Shown one piece after another: positions 1,787-6,204 of a stretch of DNA of 27,651 bases. The stretch is from the IMG/VR virus record IMGVR_UViG_2663763171_000005; one strand, written 5' to 3'. The notes under the pieces are model-generated. The model did no database searches, had not been told where the DNA came from, and saw only the letters and a program-made list of their open reading frames with translations. The DNA comes from a virus. Taxonomy: Duplodnaviria > Heunggongvirae > Uroviricota > Caudoviricetes. How positions within the stretch are numbered: position 1 is the stretch's first letter; every line of letters begins with the position of its first letter. The translations under genes and the position numbers were made by a program.

Positions 1787-1923
1787 TATATGGCTGATTT
1801 ATAATTGTGAGTTTAATATTATGTTGACTCACTCATTGATCCAATACCTAACTTTACCAGCAACACCTCCGCCCCCAGTAGCACTGGCTGCTGGGGTGCG
1901 TTTTATTCATAAAGCAAGGCTGT

Positions 1924-2712
1924 ATGAGCGAGAAATTAAAGATAGTCTATCGCCCATTACAAGAATTGTCACCGTATGCGCACAACGCCAGGACGCACAG
2001 TACTGAGCAGGTGGCACAACTGGTAGAAAGTATTAAGCAATTCGGCTGGACTAATCCGGTGCTGATTGACGAAAAGGGCGAAATTATTGCGGGTCACGGT
2101 CGTGTTATGGCGGCTGAAATGCTCAAAATGGATTCTGTTCCGGTCATTGTTCTGTCTGGCCTGACGGATGAGCAGAAAAAGGCGTACCGCCTGGCAGATA
2201 ATCGCCTGCCGATGAATGCTGGCTGGGATGAAGATCTGTTGCGGATGGAGCTGTCGGACCTAATCAATGCTGATTTTGATGTCTCCCTGACAGGCTTCAT
2301 CCCGGCAGAAATTGATGAACTGTTGACGGATGTTTTGCCCGGTACAGGAAATGAGGAGGAGCCGTATACGACGAAAATTGATACGCCTGTTTATGAGCCG
2401 TCAGGCGGTAAACCGGATATCAGTGAACTGTACGACGATACGAAAACTCAGGAGCTGATCAGCCGGATACGTTCGGCGTCCCTTGATCCTGATATTGAGA
2501 AATTCCTCCTGTGTGCAGCAGAACGTCACACGGTGTTTAATTTCAGCAGAATTGCGGACTATTACGCTCATGCCCCCGCTGAAATTCAGTGCCTTTTCGA
2601 GGAGTCGGCGCTGGTGATCATTGATTATCAGCAGGCTATTGAAAATGGATTTGTCCGAATGACGCAGCGCATGGTGGAGATCATGCATGGCGGGGAGGAG
2701 GAATATGCGTGA
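1924..2712 (+). CDS. ParB-like nuclease domain protein (ParB/Srx N-terminal fold)
   Basis: 262-aa ORF. The N-terminal region carries the ParB-type motif ...VLIDEKGEIIAGHGRVMAAEM... (GxGR box). Probably the full-length counterpart of the truncated K-12 Rac gene ynaK (from memory, unverified). The stop overlaps the next gene's start. Confidence 0.75.
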   Translation: MSEKLKIVYRPLQELSPYAHNARTHSTEQVAQLVESIKQFGWTNPVLIDEKGEIIAGHGRVMAAEMLKMDSVPVIVLSGLTDEQKKAYRLADNRLPMNAGWDEDLLRMELSDLINADFDVSLTGFIPAEIDELLTDVLPGTGNEEEPYTTKIDTPVYEPSGGKPDISELYDDTKTQELISRIRSASLDPDIEKFLLCAAERHTVFNFSRIADYYAHAPAEIQCLFEESALVIIDYQQAIENGFVRMTQRMVEIMHGGEEEYA

Positions 2713-3637
2713 TGATTTTTGCGCCTTTATTCTGACTCACGGGCGACCGGACAAAGTTCTGACTTACCGGACGTTGCGTCGTGCTGGCTATACCGGGAAA
2801 ATTTTTATCGTTGTTGATGATGAAGATAAGACACGGCATCAGTACATGGCTGAATTTGGTGAACAGGTGCTGGTATTTTCCAAAGCCGATATTGCTAGTC
2901 GTTTTGACGAAGCCGATAATTTTAGTGACCGCCGCTCAATTTTTTACGCCCGTAATGCCTGTTTCGACCAGGCAAAACTGGTCGGGTGTAAATACTTCAT
3001 TCAGCTCGATGATGATTATCACGAGTTCCAGTTTCGGGTGGATCGCAACTATGACCAGGCCTATTTCCCGATAAGGAAACTGGATGAGATCCTTTCTGAA
3101 ATGCTTGCGTACTACGAATCAATACCTGCTCTTTCCATCGCTATGTCGCAGGGCGGGGATTTTCTTGGTGACAATGGCGGCCATGCTTCGTGGGTGAAAC
3201 GCAAGGCAATGAACAGCTTTATCTGTTCGGTTGATCGACCGTTCTCATTCATGGGGCGCATTAACGAGGATGTGAATACGTACACGAATCTCGGTCGCTG
3301 TGGTGAATTGTTTATGACGATCGGTGCTGTCCAGTTAGGGCAGAAACAGACGCAGAAAAACAGCGGCGGAATGACCGAGCTGTATCTGGATTCCGGAACC
3401 TACGTTAAAAGTTTTTACTCCGTCATGTATGCGCCGTCGTGCGTAAAAATCTCACTTATGGGTGCCAGTCATAAACGCATTCACCATCAGGTCACCTGGA
3501 ACAACGCTGCAGTAAAAATCCTTCACGAAAAATACAGGAAGAAGACACCCTGCATATCAATGGGGGTGACAAATGATTCCGTATTCGAAAGTCGAGTCTC
3601 TGGCAGCGTGCCGGATGACTGCACAACAAATCGCTGA
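2705..3637 (+). CDS. Hypothetical protein, possible GT-A-like nucleotide-sugar transferase fold (DxD-type motifs)
   Basis: ORF 2687..3637. Start chosen at ATG 2705, which follows GGAGGAGG (2693-2700) by 4 nt. Contains acidic motifs IFIVVDDEDK and FIQLDDDYHEF about 60 aa apart, in the arrangement seen in GT-A glycosyltransferases; this is pattern-based inference only. Probably the intact form of the K-12 Rac pseudogene ydaY (unverified). Confidence 0.6.
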   Translation: MRDDFCAFILTHGRPDKVLTYRTLRRAGYTGKIFIVVDDEDKTRHQYMAEFGEQVLVFSKADIASRFDEADNFSDRRSIFYARNACFDQAKLVGCKYFIQLDDDYHEFQFRVDRNYDQAYFPIRKLDEILSEMLAYYESIPALSIAMSQGGDFLGDNGGHASWVKRKAMNSFICSVDRPFSFMGRINEDVNTYTNLGRCGELFMTIGAVQLGQKQTQKNSGGMTELYLDSGTYVKSFYSVMYAPSCVKISLMGASHKRIHHQVTWNNAAVKILHEKYRKKTPCISMGVTNDSVFESRVSGSVPDDCTTNR

Positions 3638-3824
3638 CGTTCTGGATGTTGATCTGAACCGACTGAAAGAAAATCGGGAAGCAATGACAGATTTTTATGC
3701 GGCCATCCGTAAGGGCAGAGCGAAAGGTGAAGCCGAGTTACGAGCGGCATTGTTTAAGCTTGCCAGAAAAGGGGATGCCTTTGCTCTGCGCGAACTACTC
3801 AGGGTGGATAAAAATCAGGACTAA
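3573..3824 (+). CDS. Small hypothetical protein, possibly DNA-binding (helical, basic)
   Basis: 83-aa ORF preceded by GGGGGTGA. Overlaps the 3' end of the upstream ORF by 65 nt in another frame. Ends 3 nt before the small terminase ATG. An internal ATG at 3615 is an alternative start. Confidence 0.45.
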   Translation: MIPYSKVESLAACRMTAQQIADVLDVDLNRLKENREAMTDFYAAIRKGRAKGEAELRAALFKLARKGDAFALRELLRVDKNQD

Positions 3825-3827
3825 CTG

Positions 3828-4922
3828 ATGAGCAGACCGGACTGGGGGGCGTTGCAGCAGGAGTATATTGCTGAATACACCCGCTCCGGTATATCTCCGG
3901 TGGCATGGTGTGAAGCAAGGGGACTGAATTACGCAACAGCCCGTCGTTACATCAAAAAAACTCCGAAAAATGCGCAGACAGAAATGTGCAAAACTGCGCA
4001 AAAAAGTGCGCAGAAAAAATCTGCGCAGACTGCACAAAAGCGGAACGAAAAATCTCAGGAAAAAAAGCCAGTATTCGATGCGGGCCTGAATGAGGGCGAC
4101 GCGGAGGAATTTTCGTTCTGTCCCGATGAATTCGGCATTTCTGACCAGCAGGCTAAGTTTGCGATGCTTGTTGCTCAGGGTAAAAAGCCGACAGAGGCGT
4201 ACCGACTAGCCGGTTATGAGGGGCAAGGTGCGACAGCTAACAGCAACGCCAGTCGTATGCTTAGAAATGCCAGGGTTTTTCGCGCTATCAGCTACTTCCG
4301 CAATCAGTACCAGAAACGCTATACCGCAGACCTGGATTTACTAGTGAGTCAGTTGATGGCTATTGTCCTGGCCGACCCCAATCAGCTTGCACAATTTCGC
4401 CGTGTTAACTGCCGTTATTGCTGGGGCGAGAATCATCTCTACCAGTGGCGCGATATAGCAGAATTCGACAAGGCAGCGGCGCAGGCTTCCAGAGATGGCA
4501 AACCCGAACCGGAATATGGAGGCCTCGGCTTTGTTGATAACGCCATACCCAATCCGGACTGCCCGAAGTGCTGCGGTGAGGGAACGGGACAGCTTTATAT
4601 GGCTGATACCACTCTGCTTGATGGGGATGCGCGGCAATTATATGCAGGGGCAAAATTCGGAAAATTCGGCGTTGAGATCCTGCTGGAGGATAAGGCTGCC
4701 GCCCGGCGTGAATTGTTGCGTTTGTTTTCTGCTGGCGGGGCTTTATGTGCAGATAAGCGGCTACGGGAACTGGAAATTGAACGGCGCAGAATGGAAAACC
4801 AGAAGCTGCGCAAAGAGATCGAAACGGTGGAAGATAATGAACATCCCCAGCCTGTGGCGATCAATATTAATGTGGTTGATGCCAGAGTAAGGAGTGATGA
4901 AGATGATCTCTCCGACGCTTAA
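3828..4922 (+). CDS. Terminase small subunit (N-terminal HTH DNA-binding domain)
   Basis: 364-aa ORF directly upstream of the large terminase. N-terminal HTH-like segment ISPVAWCEARGLNYATARRYI, followed by a lysine-rich linker and a Cys-rich segment (CRYCWGENH...CPKCCGEG). Confidence 0.8.
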   Translation: MSRPDWGALQQEYIAEYTRSGISPVAWCEARGLNYATARRYIKKTPKNAQTEMCKTAQKSAQKKSAQTAQKRNEKSQEKKPVFDAGLNEGDAEEFSFCPDEFGISDQQAKFAMLVAQGKKPTEAYRLAGYEGQGATANSNASRMLRNARVFRAISYFRNQYQKRYTADLDLLVSQLMAIVLADPNQLAQFRRVNCRYCWGENHLYQWRDIAEFDKAAAQASRDGKPEPEYGGLGFVDNAIPNPDCPKCCGEGTGQLYMADTTLLDGDARQLYAGAKFGKFGVEILLEDKAAARRELLRLFSAGGALCADKRLRELEIERRRMENQKLRKEIETVEDNEHPQPVAININVVDARVRSDEDDLSDA

Positions 4923-6204
4923 TGTGCCTCAGGCGCGATTTCTTTCAATGCCCCATAAATTTAAAGCCTATATTGCTGGTTTTGGCTCGGGCAAAACATG
5001 GGTTGGGTGTGGCGGCATATGCAAGGGGATTTGGGAGCATCCAGGTATAAATCAGGGATATTTTGCGCCAACGTATCCCCAAATTCGCGATATTTTTTAC
5101 CCTACAGTGGAAGAAGTTGCTGCTGACTGGGGATTGAACGTAAAAATTAATGAGGGAAATAAAGAGGTTCACTTTTATTACGGACGCCAGTATCGGGGAA
5201 CCACTATCTGCAGATCGATGGAGAAGCCACAAACGATCGTCGGTTTCAAAATTGGTAATGCGTTGGTGGATGAACTGGACATTTTGCCGAAGGAAAAAGC
5301 CAGAACGGCGTGGCGCAAGATAATTGCACGTATGCGTTATAAGATTGATGGACTTCGCAACGGTATTGACGTTACAACCACGCCGGAAGGATTCAAATTT
5401 GTCTACGAGCAGTTTGTTAAAGCCGTGCGTGAAAAAACAGAGCTGGCCTCACTGTATGGTCTGGTGCAGGCATCTACTTTCGATAATGAAAAGAACCTGC
5501 CAGCAGATTACATTCCTTCGCTTCTTGAATCATACCCTCCAGAGCTGATTAAAGCCTATCTTCGAGGACAGTTTACTAACCTGACAAGTGGTACTGTTTA
5601 CCATCAGTTTGACCGGAAACTGAATAATTGCGAAGAAGTGGAGCAGCCAGGGGAGCCGATTTATATTGGGATGGATTTTAACGTTGGAAAGATGGCGGGA
5701 ATCGTCCATGTGCTGCGTTTGGGGCTTCCATGTGCGGTAACTGAAATCATCAATGCCTACGATACGCCGGATATGATCCGCATCATTAAAGAACGCTTCT
5801 GGCTGTATGATGGGAATGATTACCGGAAAGTGAGGGAAATTTATATTTATCCAGATGCTTCCGGGGATTCCAGAAAATCAAGTAACGCAAGTACGACGGA
5901 TATAGCCCAGCTTAAGCAGGCTGGTTTTAACGTTGTGGTGAACAGCTCGAACCCGCCAGTAAAAGATCGCGTTAACTCAATGAATGCAATGTTCTGCAAT
6001 GCCAATGGTGAGCGTCGCTATAAAGTTAATGTGAAGCGTTGCCCGTTATATGCCGAATCTCTGGAGCAACAGGTCTGGGATGAGAAGGGGGAGCCTGATA
6101 AAAAATCTGGCAATGATCACCCGAATGATGCCGGAGGTTATTTCATCGTTAAGCAATTCCCTATTGTCAAACCGACCGGAAGAGTCACATCACTTCGGAT
6201 TTAA
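4903..6204 (+). CDS. Terminase large subunit (ATPase plus nuclease)
   Basis: Walker A motif AGFGSGKT near the N-terminus, Walker B-like LVDELD, and acidic nuclease-type motifs (IGMDFN, YIYPDASGD) in the C-terminal half. Start ambiguous among GTG 4894, ATG 4897 and ATG 4903; ATG 4903 has the best spacing from TAAGGAG (4888-4894). Confidence 0.88.
   Translation: MISPTLNVPQARFLSMPHKFKAYIAGFGSGKTWVGCGGICKGIWEHPGINQGYFAPTYPQIRDIFYPTVEEVAADWGLNVKINEGNKEVHFYYGRQYRGTTICRSMEKPQTIVGFKIGNALVDELDILPKEKARTAWRKIIARMRYKIDGLRNGIDVTTTPEGFKFVYEQFVKAVREKTELASLYGLVQASTFDNEKNLPADYIPSLLESYPPELIKAYLRGQFTNLTSGTVYHQFDRKLNNCEEVEQPGEPIYIGMDFNVGKMAGIVHVLRLGLPCAVTEIINAYDTPDMIRIIKERFWLYDGNDYRKVREIYIYPDASGDSRKSSNASTTDIAQLKQAGFNVVVNSSNPPVKDRVNSMNAMFCNANGERRYKVNVKRCPLYAESLEQQVWDEKGEPDKKSGNDHPNDAGGYFIVKQFPIVKPTGRVTSLRI

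Follow-up and report, generated by a model that had tools for sequence, protein, structure and literature searches.

With one exception, the known phage DNA sugar modifications begin at 5-hydroxymethyl-pyrimidines. To our knowledge, every characterised DNA glycosyltransferase of the TAGT family requires a hydroxymethyl group, and we know of no precedent for the glycosylation of canonical DNA by a glycosyltransferase. The TAGT family was reportedly defined in 2013 by Iyer et al., who are also said to have put forward a ParB hypothesis. The exception is 5-hydroxycytosine, described in one 2026 report as the start of phage DNA sugar modification. The closest described enzymes are GT-A DNA glycosyltransferases that phages encode in association with 5mYOX/TET dioxygenases (Burke et al., 2021; Pyle et al., 2023/2024); they cluster with a C5-methyltransferase and/or a dioxygenase making 5hmC or 5hmU and are often located near ParB and terminase genes. 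An active-site motif R...DDD...EDY/F was assigned to the base J glucosyltransferase (JGT) of kinetoplastids and to phage GT-A enzymes glycosylating 5hmC (Pyle et al.). In the same work, intact hypermodification pathways were normally clustered, and about 65% of the phage glycosyltransferase contigs had no neighbouring handle-making enzyme and were set aside as less obviously DNA-related. By family definition and RefSeq name, JGT, which acts on 5hmU generated by JBP1/2, and mammalian GREB1, a large multidomain protein that O-GlcNAcylates ER-alpha, have a related GT-A domain. A link between ParB-like proteins and DNA-modification enzymes has also been discussed in print. In experiments, a phage T-dioxygenase depended on ParB176 for its action on dsDNA, and the ParBs of that study are encoded beside, and required by, a post-replicative dioxygenase (O'Toole et al., PNAS 2026). 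In addition, ParB-fused phage DNA N6/N4 methyltransferases (PHROG 498; MTase_II) are frequently encoded in prophage late regions.

The locus described here lies in a window of 27,651 nucleotides (the whole stretch of DNA analysed, IMG/VR record IMGVR_UViG_2663763171_000005) and combines a ParB-like protein with a glycosyltransferase (GT) of the TAGT/JGT/GREB1-related family. The cassette is carried by an Escherichia coli prophage of the inducible lambdoid type. The gene pair is flanked upstream by the trkG moron (311–1786) and downstream by the plus-strand genes of the terminase small subunit TerS (3828–4922; Pfam Terminase_2, 3.8e-8) and large subunit TerL (4894–6204; Terminase_6N, 3.7e-33; Terminase_6C, 3.4e-10), in accordance with the position given in the earlier note. 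In the gap between trkG and the cassette, a pattern scan detected a terminator-like hairpin on the plus strand (1873–1896; a 10-bp stem with seven G-C pairs, followed by TGCGTTTTAT; consensus match only). The trkG moron transcript probably ends at this hairpin, and late transcription would have to read through it.

The ParB-like partner (262 amino acids, 1924–2712) and the GT (310 amino acids, 2705–3637) are both encoded on the plus strand. Reading the sequence confirmed every element that had been reported for this region, namely the ORF with the GHGR box, the coupled second ORF with its Shine-Dalgarno sequence and two acidic motifs, and a third ORF overlapping its 3' end. At the translational-coupling junction (2694–2712, plus strand), the start codon of the GT (ATG, 2705) overlaps the stop codon of the partner (TGA, 2710–2712), giving ATGCGTGA, and the Shine-Dalgarno sequence GGAGGAGG (2694–2701) is separated from the ATG by 3 nt. 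Because of this coupling, the GT and its acidic partner are probably made together. An alternative GT reading of 316 amino acids would start at ATG 2687; in homologues, however, the protein starts with the MRDDF read from 2705. Both ORFs are real genes and not chance ORFs, because they match Pfam families (ParB_N, 8.7e-7; TAGT, 3.7e-34) and PHROGs (620, 1.7e-90; 842, 7.5e-104) and each has thousands of homologue clusters. The third, small basic ORF (83 amino acids, 3573–3824, plus strand) overlaps the 3' end of the GT gene and ends 3 nt ahead of the TerS start codon (ATG, 3828); its RefSeq version is shorter and starts further downstream. It matches PHROG 309 ('terminase small subunit', 8.3e-23, profile positions 145–218 of 319) and is kept at the same position in enterobacterial loci according to phmmer. 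In distant loci it is absent, and TerS directly follows the GT. The small ORF probably belongs to the packaging genes and not to the cassette.

In the Rac prophage of Escherichia coli K-12, the earlier note had seen truncated remnants of both genes. This holds for the ParB gene, of which the first 87 amino acids remain as ynaK, the partner described here being its intact form (Pfam, PHROG, and Foldseek). The GT gene is wholly deleted in K-12. The gene ydaY, which follows ynaK, was considered as a GT remnant and rejected, as it is a tail-region gene in intact prophages.

The family assignment of the GT is already known in the databases. The protein matches Pfam TAGT (PF20691) with an E-value of 3.7e-34 (118.9 bits, cut-off 27.5), the match spanning residues 8–222 and profile positions 4–205 of 205, and carries the RefSeq name "GREB1-related protein". 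The PHROG 842 match (7.5e-104) is complemented by PHROG 31222 over residues 199–280, which reveals a conserved extension of about 60 amino acids past the end of the Pfam model. NCBIfam yielded no GT model, and a sequence search against PDB chains gave no matches. In the AlphaFold2 (AF2) model, the mean pLDDT was about 66 and the C-terminal half was poorly modelled. The leading PDB matches in Foldseek were GT-A enzymes such as SpsA, glycogenin, WrtF, and ColGalT1, which match at the generic level of the GT-A fold (E about 1e-3 to 1e-4). Against BFVD, the top matches were TAGT-domain viral proteins (E 5.6e-21, TM 0.69–0.76). No transmembrane segment was found, and the protein is, as modelled, a soluble enzyme of the GT-A fold, as had been guessed from its motifs. 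The two acidic motifs VVDDED (residues 36–41) and QLDDDY (residues 100–105) do correspond to invariant GT-A motifs in the alignment. The invariant residues are R14, D38/D41, D102-D103-D104, Q149/D152, N187-E188-D189, and R258/H260-H261; R14, D102–D104, and E188-D189 were invariant in all 20 aligned sequences. D102-D103-D104 is the predicted metal/NDP-sugar motif, and R14 and E188-D189 are the predicted active-site residues. This R...DDD...ED pattern, common to the GT and the 5mYOX/TET-linked enzymes, fits the motif of Pyle et al., with EDV instead of EDY/F as the third element. The clade described here differs from those enzymes by the 60-residue extension and by an obligate partner bearing a specific C-terminal domain (CTD); JGT and GREB1 also lack such a ParB/CTD partner. 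The GT of the T4-like Aeromonas phage 65 matches Pfam TAGT far better (6e-62) than the GT studied here and has no ParB/CTD neighbour. An assignment as a T-even hmC glucosyltransferase was rejected, since the lambdoid prophage is annotated without a hydroxymethylase pathway. The annotation of PHROG 842 as 'beta-glucosyl-HMC-alpha-glucosyltransferase' comes from a cluster of remote homologues, and when the GT was compared by tblastn with 50,697 phage records, no T2, T4, or T6 record was among the matches listed.

The partner matches Pfam ParB_N (29.3 bits, cut-off 26.3) and PHROG 620, with PDB profile matches at about 1e-5 (Noc, Spo0J, and ParB) and Foldseek matches to Noc, ParB-CDP, KorB, Srx, and SerK (1.6e-6 and weaker). 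These matches confirm the ParB/Srx fold proposed earlier, which belongs to the N-terminal domain. The ParB/Srx nucleotide-binding domain (NBD, residues about 1–95) and an adjacent helical segment (96–144) are encoded at 1924–2355 (plus strand; PDB profile, PADLOC, PHROG 498, AF2). The GHGR P-motif (G57-H58-G59-R60, nucleotides 2092–2103) is located at this domain, and the surrounding IIAGHGR aligns with IIAGERR of Noc and Spo0J in the PDB profile. As in the canonical CTPase clamps ParB, Spo0J, Noc, and KorB, the second arginine of GERR is kept (R60, invariant), and the Box III asparagine is present as N93. Unlike these clamps, the partner lacks a helix-turn-helix (HTH) domain, a ParA protein to work with, and any recognised domain for dimerisation, and it is strongly acidic (pI 4.50, net charge −24). 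Pfam detected neither a recognisable DNA-binding domain nor an HTH family. A canonical partition function (ParABS), as suggested by the database label 'chromosome (plasmid) partitioning protein', was rejected: the TIGR00180 match (38.1 bits, cut-off 58.45) covers residues 11–94 only, all NCBIfam ParB models are below their cut-offs, no HTH was found, and no parA is annotated in the Rac-type prophage. Instead, residues 10–144 match PADLOC MTase_II (1.5e-38) and residues 3–141 match PHROG 498 (6.1e-51), covering positions 13–151 of 436 and 31–171 of 633, respectively. The N-terminal module of the ParB-fused methyltransferases thus corresponds to partner residues of about 3–144. Unlike those fusions, the partner contains no methyltransferase domain; the CTD follows, and catalysis resides in the separate, coupled GT gene.

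The unannotated CTD (residues 145–262; 2356–2709, plus strand) comprises about 115 amino acids and starts with a disordered linker, followed by a helical domain. In the AF2 model of the partner, whose confidence is moderate (pLDDT 66), strands and helices occupy residues 1–93, helices residues 103–134, and helices residues 172–255, with pLDDT values below 50 at residues 136–170. The linker contains the invariant motif Y148-T-x-K-I-x-x-P155-x-Y157-E-P, and the helical part contains AAxR201-H202, E226, SALVIID234, and an acidic tail. Among 17 distant partners, the CTD and not the ParB domain is the most conserved region. It gave no significant Pfam or PDB match; an interpretation as a canonical ParB dimerisation domain or HTH was rejected, as neither database supports it. 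Clustering at 50% yielded 1,187 CTD representatives. The order NBD, helical segment, disordered linker, and CTD, without a DNA-binding domain, agrees with that of ParB176 as compared by its published description, and both proteins share the Foldseek neighbours Noc, Myxococcus xanthus ParB, and PadC. The adjoining enzyme is a GT here and a dioxygenase in the systems of O'Toole et al.

A survey of the co-occurrence of both genes, which the earlier note had proposed, revealed a module that is conserved beside the terminase. Wherever a GT ORF was present among the loci examined, an ORF detected by the ParB HMM was located directly upstream on the same strand, in Enterobacteria, Bacteroidota, Firmicutes, Actinobacteria, and a haloarchaeal virus, and the two ORFs overlap or abut in essentially all other loci as well. 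Judged by gene order, the ParB-like partner and the GT form an obligate cassette. The CTD was found in 28 of 50,697 phage records, and all 28 were among the 40 GT-carrying records. Across 40 non-redundant loci, the correlation with the GT was higher for the CTD (r = 0.85) than for the N-terminal part of the partner (0.62), pointing to the CTD, and not the ParB domain, as the part that tracks the GT most closely. Vibrio jumbo phages retain the CTD alone; in Vibrio phage pv27, it is located upstream of the GT, and this pair lies amid primase, exonuclease, and helicase genes. In one locus the GT is present as two paralogues, of which one is fused to a SAM methyltransferase. No natural CTD-GT fusion, which would have spoken for an interaction, was detected among the 150 best representatives; the apparent fusion P0241 was rejected as a frameshift chimera. 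Terminases of at least four unrelated families (Terminase_6N, Terminase_3, GpA, and TerL_ATPase) are usually encoded just downstream, with TerL within about 0.3–3.6 kb in most loci with enough downstream sequence. Of 5,426 complete E. coli genomes, 867 (about a sixth) carry the intact cassette, which also occurs in the late operon of lytic-type phage genomes. A known anti-phage defence system was considered and rejected, since PADLOC has no matching model for the GT or the small ORF and the partner is matched only via its methyltransferase-type N-terminal module. No experiments on the ParB-like/GT pair were found in the literature searched, which also contained nothing relevant on the pair for the Lactobacillus delbrueckii phages Ld17 and Ld25A. 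The pair is mentioned neither in the 5-hydroxycytosine paper nor in the paper on injected anti-restriction proteins; the Tmn/Nmad5 paper was discarded as a source because it deals with another modification gene. The earlier description of the pair as essentially uncharacterised is too strong nonetheless, given that the family is covered by Pfam, PHROGs, and RefSeq naming and the link between ParB and DNA modification is in print. The obligate pairing, the GT-tracking CTD, and the missing hydroxymethyl source go beyond the databases.

In contrast to the 5mYOX/TET-linked GTs, no C5-methyltransferase and/or 5hmC/5hmU-making dioxygenase accompanied the cassette in the contexts examined. No TET_JBP or thymidylate-synthase family was present in the precomputed per-gene Pfam matches of contigs covering ±10 kb. 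Both were also absent from the 25 commonest families listed in pooled Pfam scans (121 and 78 neighbour ORFs from 15 diverse loci), which is strong, short of absolute, evidence against a common TET/JBP neighbour. The annotation of the Rac-type prophage contains no acceptor-making enzyme. The complete 31.8-kb genome of phage c5 has no candidate for a TET/JBP dioxygenase or a thymidylate-synthase-like enzyme; its unassigned ORFs of at least 139 amino acids encode proteins of 208, 169, 155, and 139 amino acids, none with a Pfam match. Judged by these searches, the cassette and its genomes, as examined, appear to lack a dioxygenase or hydroxymethylase that makes a 5-hydroxymethyl handle.

The pair could well be a two-component, late-expressed glycosylation module, and we tentatively favour the phage's own DNA as its most likely target. 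A DNA-modification or anti-defence module, as proposed in the earlier note, remains the leading hypothesis because the module is conserved next to the terminase and those phage enzymes of the GT family that have been characterised glycosylate DNA; the part of that proposal now in doubt is the nature of the target, since the acceptor-making enzyme is absent and a protein target is thereby possible. The connection to DNA is drawn from the N-terminal module that the partner shares with DNA methyltransferases, the replication-gene context in pv27, and the ParB176-like layout. In such a module, the CTD of the partner would bind or activate the GT, and the ParB/Srx nucleotide-binding module may bring the enzyme to, or hold it on, double-stranded DNA, on the model of the phage ParB-like activators needed by a thymine dioxygenase subclass on dsDNA. 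Co-expression with the terminase would allow concatemeric phage DNA to be marked just before packaging, and in the next host the mark might shield it against restriction or other defences that target nucleic acids. The strong acidity of the partner, its lack of a recognisable DNA-binding domain, and the glycosylation of a protein by the relative GREB1 speak against a DNA target. It is possible, if on balance doubtful, that the CTD-GT core glycosylates without any hydroxymethyl handle, the acceptor being either canonical DNA (an exocyclic amine or another position) or the Tyr/Thr motif of the partner, which would then carry a DNA-associated, protein-primed glycan.

A GT that modifies proteins would need no hydroxymethyl-pyrimidine, of which no source was found in any context examined. 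Its acceptor may be the partner itself, for example in the manner of glycogenin, with the invariant Tyr/Thr of its YTxKIxxPxYEP linker as the site, or a packaging or virion protein with the partner as substrate or adaptor. GREB1, of the same family, O-GlcNAcylates a protein, and fold neighbours glycosylate proteins or peptides (glycogenin on Tyr, ColGalT1 on hydroxylysine, SunS/ThuS on Cys); the invariant Y148/P155/Y157 motif lies where the pLDDT is below 50 and is kept even in the CTD-only variant. However, these fold neighbours are generic GT-A matches, no protein acceptor is indicated, the characterised phage family members act on DNA, and the N-terminal module of the partner is the one fused to DNA methyltransferases, so that a protein GT appears rather unlikely. 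Still less probable is an ordinary TAGT pathway, in which the GT would glycosylate 5hmU or 5hmC. The hydroxylase or hydroxymethylase forming these bases would then either have diverged beyond recognition or lie at another place in the phage or host genome. Divergent dioxygenases do exist, as thousands of the contigs with a 5mYOX profile in O'Toole et al. have no TET/JBP Pfam annotation, and the commonest neighbours of 5mYOX genes in their survey were GTs, ParBs, and terminases; the pooled scans, in which the 25 commonest families were listed, may hide a single weak match. Against this pathway stand the complete genome of phage c5 and the well-studied Rac-type prophage, both without a candidate, the lack of such an enzyme within 10 kb in every contig examined with per-gene Pfam matches, and the normally clustered organisation of intact pathways (Pyle et al.).

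A role outside nucleic-acid or virion modification is highly improbable. The partner would then be a partition, nuclease, or packaging-site factor and the GT a lysogenic-conversion enzyme altering a host surface polymer, comparable to the prophage-encoded TarP. The database label of the partner, the location of the cassette after the trkG moron, and the finding that phage GT-A enzymes have TarP as their best PDB match (Pyle et al.) fit such a role. It is contradicted by the TIGR00180 score and the missing HTH and parA with regard to partition, and by the absence of a membrane segment in the GT, the presence of the cassette in the late operon of lytic-type phages, and the strict coupling of the genes across Gram-negative, Gram-positive, and archaeal hosts, which have no common envelope polymer. 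Nothing indicates the nuclease function that the earlier note had also considered; the partner has a pI of 4.5, and its GT-linked part is the new CTD and not the ParB domain.

The cassette provides a clean, widespread, and genetically tractable two-gene example of the unexplained GT majority of Pyle et al. If the acceptor of the favoured glycosylation module is DNA, a new DNA modification could be at hand, with a bearing on the evasion of restriction and defence systems, host range in phage therapy, sequencing artefacts, and enzymatic DNA labelling; glycosylation of canonical DNA, if true, would mean a hitherto undescribed chemistry of DNA modification. If the acceptor is a protein, a family of DNA glycosyltransferases would have been turned to protein targets in phages. 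By analogy with the dioxygenase systems, the activation of DNA-modifying enzymes by orphan ParB-like proteins would extend to a second enzyme class. The CTD, a specific uncharacterised domain, is pointed to as the probable interface with the GT, and if glycosylation proceeds without a hydroxymethyl handle, about a sixth of complete E. coli genomes would encode, in the CTD, a new domain that activates the GT or serves as its acceptor.

The window covers the late genes of a lambdoid E. coli prophage of the Rac type, in the gene order trkG, ParB-like gene, glycosyltransferase (GT) gene, small ORF, TerS (Terminase_2), TerL (Terminase_6N/6C), and portal and head genes. The trkG moron (311-1786; TrkH, 1.1e-144) is low in GC (approximately 0.39) and is an insertion with the lysis genes on one side and the packaging operon on the other; pattern matching predicts a strong terminator-like hairpin behind it (1873-1896). 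The GC content elsewhere in the late region is 0.45-0.51, and 0.55-0.62 in a block at approximately 18-24 kb. The gene pair was found as the earlier note had read it. The 262-aa ORF (1924-2712, plus strand) has its GHGR box at residues 57-60. The 310-aa ORF (2705-3637, plus strand) is translationally coupled to it, its ATG at 2705 overlapping the upstream stop (ATGCGTGA) behind a Shine-Dalgarno sequence (GGAGGAGG, 2694-2701), and contains VVDDED at residues 36-41 and QLDDDY at residues 100-105. The third small ORF, which overlaps the 3' end of the GT gene, is also present (3573-3824). It encodes a basic protein of 83 aa, its stop lies 3 nt ahead of TerS, and it is kept in enterobacterial loci only. 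The small ORF aligns with the middle of the TerS PHROG (8.3e-23), and TerS (3828-4922, 364 aa) has an N-terminal HTH-like region of its own, with a weak match to the IS66 TnpA-type HTH; packaging recognition may therefore be split across the two genes.

The 310-aa protein matches the TET-associated glycosyltransferases (TAGT; Pfam PF20691, 3.7e-34, residues 8-222) and PHROG 842 (7.5e-104), and is named 'GREB1-related protein' in RefSeq and UniRef. In its AF2 model, confidence is good up to residue 150 and poor from there on. The leading PDB fold neighbours are GT-A enzymes (WrtF, a Leptospira GT, SpsA, glycogenin, ColGalT1, and SunS), and the best viral-structure matches are TAGT-domain proteins (5.6e-21, TM 0.69-0.76). 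Residues invariant among 20 homologues of at least 59% identity include R14, D38, D41, D102-D104, Q149, D152, N187-E188-D189, and R258/H260/H261. They reproduce the pattern 'R...DDD...EDY/F' found in 5hmC-glycosylating phage GT-A enzymes and the base-J glucosyltransferase (Pyle et al.). Family, fold, and invariant residues thus show that the GT-A fold, previously a guess from motif spacing, was assigned correctly and that both acidic motifs are functional ones (D38/D41 and D102-D104).

The ParB/Srx fold proposed for the N-terminal part of the partner is borne out by Pfam (8.7e-7), by profile matches to Noc, Spo0J, and ParB structures (IIAGHGR aligned with IIAGERR), and by its Foldseek neighbours (Noc, ParB-CDP, PadC, KorB, sulfiredoxin, and a serine kinase). 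A function as partition ParB was rejected, since the protein scores below the TIGR00180 cut-off, lacks an HTH, has no parA neighbour, and is strongly acidic (pI 4.5, net charge -24), a property shared by the homologues from all lineages tested. Residues ~3-144 correspond to the N-terminal module of ParB-fused phage DNA methyltransferases (PHROG 498, 6.1e-51; PADLOC MTase_II, 1.5e-38). In the AF2 model, a nucleotide-binding domain is followed by helices (103-134), a disordered linker (136-170), and a helical C-terminal domain (172-255), which is the layout described for the phage ParB-like activator ParB176 (O'Toole et al.). A thymine dioxygenase requires ParB176, which likewise has no DNA-binding domain, on dsDNA in vivo and in vitro, and the commonest neighbours of phage genes of the TET/JBP-type dioxygenase group (5mYOX) are GTs, ParBs, and terminases (O'Toole et al.). 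Burke et al., citing Iyer et al. (2013), mention the idea that during packaging ParB guides modification enzymes to DNA.

In an alignment of 17 distant partners, conservation was highest not in the ParB domain but over the C-terminal ~115 residues, here termed CTD (residues 145-262). The CTD starts with the linker motif Y-T-x-K-I-x-x-P-x-Y-E-P, in which Y148, P155, and Y157 are invariant or nearly so, and continues with a helical domain (AAxRH, E226, SALVIID); searches of Pfam and the PDB with the CTD gave no significant match. Clustering at 50% yielded 1,187 CTD representatives, mostly the C-termini of 250-300-aa proteins, together with some short forms. In one metagenomic representative (P0265, 433 aa), the CTD is preceded by a tandem pair of ParB N-terminal domains. 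Genuine CTD-GT fusions were absent from the best 150 of the 1,187 representatives. In Vibrio jumbo phages, the ORF 5' of the GT consists of the CTD alone, with no ParB domain (139 aa in pv27). In pv27 (locus L117, 4459-5888) and five related jumbo phages, the CTD-GT pair lies amid primase, exonuclease, and helicase genes and not beside the terminase. The CTD occurs in 28 of 50,697 phage records, all of them among the 40 that tblastn identified as GT-bearing. GT records without it are decaying copies (some L. delbrueckii phages), a divergent Porphyromonas pair, and remote T4-like Aeromonas homologues, which also lack a ParB. Across 40 non-redundant loci, mean pairwise identity was highest for the GT (55%), followed by the CTD (48%) and the ParB part (34%). 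GT divergence followed that of the CTD (r = 0.85) more closely than that of the ParB part (r = 0.62); as the loci are related by phylogeny, these correlations are purely descriptive. Judged from these sequences, the real partner of the GT is probably the new C-terminal domain.

Beyond the E. coli/Salmonella set, GT homologues of 39-47% identity were found in Nocardia phage NTR1, Lactobacillus phages phi jlb1, c5, phiLdb, and PMBT4, haloarchaeal virus HHTV-2, and the Vibrio jumbo phages; Porphyromonas phages matched at 27%. In phi jlb1, c5, HHTV-2, NTR1, and the Porphyromonas phage, the GT gene starts before the end of a ParB-type gene, and in four of these five, terminase genes follow within ~0.6 kb; in c5, the pair is ORF1-ORF2, directly after the cos site. 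Scanning one genome per species gave 27 loci with GTs of 50-59% identity to the E. coli protein (Enterobacteria, Bacteroides, Dysgonomonas, Lachnospiraceae, Desulfovibrionaceae, Prosthecochloris, Hyphomonadaceae, Saccharibacteria, and others). The survey of co-occurrence suggested earlier, carried out with homologue-built HMMs, placed a ParB-type ORF directly 5' on the same strand in every locus with a GT ORF, nearly always overlapping or abutting it. TerL lies ~0.3-3.6 kb 3' in most of the loci whose sequence extends at least 4 kb downstream, a lower bound because the TerL seeds miss some families. No fewer than four unrelated Pfam families are represented among the adjacent terminases (Terminase_6N, Terminase_3, GpA, and TerL_ATPase). 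Given the strict pairing and the diverse terminases downstream, the pair is an obligate, mobile cassette that travels whole between phages whose packaging machines differ, while its position at the start of the packaging operon stays the same.

The L. delbrueckii phages Ld17 (KJ564037/NC_025420), LL-Ku (AY739900/NC_022989), and Ld25A (KJ564036/NC_025415) have a fragmented GT or a 45-residue remnant beside the ParB gene, and the GT is intact in their sisters c5, phiLdb, and PMBT4; some lineages are therefore losing the cassette, which is dispensable. In a Hyphomonadaceae MAG (L111, 2614-6161), the ParB-like gene precedes two GT paralogues. The first of them (564 aa) carries a SAM-dependent methyltransferase domain fused to its C-terminus (Methyltransf_23, 1.3e-5; Methyltransf_11, 3.8e-4), which points to a more complex glycan that may be methylated. 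The locus also shows that the system is open to enzymatic elaboration. In a cassette-bearing metagenomic phage (L115, 17837-20316; L116, 8659-11138), four consecutive GT2-family genes just 3' of the major capsid gene are reminiscent of virion-glycosylation clusters. Pooled Pfam matches near the cassette in Bacteroidales loci (L095, L097, L102, and relatives) included the DNA polymerase III beta-clamp (two loci), extra ParB_N proteins, PAPS-reductase/DUF3440, one C5 DNA methyltransferase, and one N6/N4 DNA methyltransferase, so that other DNA-modification genes cluster in the same late-region slot.

Within E. coli, the 2.1-kb stretch 1800-3900 is 100% identical to the chromosomes of several strains and is found in 10 deposited phage records at ~98.7% identity; 16 matches are on plasmids. 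It matched 1,607 of 5,426 complete genomes but only 867 over at least 80% of its length, and truncated remnants like that of K-12 thus appear about as common as intact copies. Truncated equivalents of both genes had been expected in K-12 Rac. This holds for the ParB gene, cut to its first 87 codons (ynaK), but not for the GT gene, which is wholly absent; the next K-12 gene, ydaY, is a tail-region gene in intact prophages. In NZ_CP058571.1 (L001, 20125-20382), RefSeq tags an intact 262-aa gene, identical to that of the window, as a partial 'ynaK' pseudogene with a missing C-terminus, which leaves the conserved CTD unannotated. The mislabel apparently stems from the reference name of the truncated K-12 gene.

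To our knowledge, all characterised relatives transfer a sugar onto a 5-hydroxymethyl group, which a dioxygenase or a thymidylate-synthase-like enzyme supplies. No such annotation was found from recT to gpJ of the Rac-type prophage, and no handle-making enzyme in the complete c5 genome, whose sole unassigned ORFs of 139 aa or more are without a Pfam match. TET_JBP was absent from precomputed Pfam matches of contigs covering ±10 kb. Two pooled Pfam scans (121 and 78 neighbouring ORFs, 15 diverse loci) likewise gave no handle-making enzyme among the 25 commonest families, a scope that leaves room for a lone weak match. A hidden hydroxylase is improbable. Pyle et al. reported that ~65% of phage GT contigs have no handle-making neighbour and regarded their connection to DNA as less obvious; a literature search gave no paper characterising a 5mYOX-less ParB-TAGT pair.

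The most likely reading, which we hold tentatively, is a two-component, late-expressed DNA glycosyltransferase. The GT would be the catalyst, the CTD of the partner would engage it, the ParB/Srx module would provide nucleotide-gated access to dsDNA, and co-expression with the terminase would allow DNA to be marked ahead of encapsidation. The main rival, a protein target of the GT, is rather unlikely; it has precedents in GREB1 and the glycogenin-like fold neighbours, and the invariant Tyr/Thr motif in the disordered linker of the partner could be an acceptor or docking peptide. That the pair serves no modification at all is very improbable.

Since the family assignments are already public in databases and the link between ParB and modification has been published, the pair is not categorically new. 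New, as far as sequence comparison can tell, are a very widespread TAGT clade lacking a hydroxylase, its obligate partner with a previously unrecognised domain, and the fixed slot before diverse terminases. The open question of what such GTs modify is thereby turned into a two-gene experiment in E. coli.
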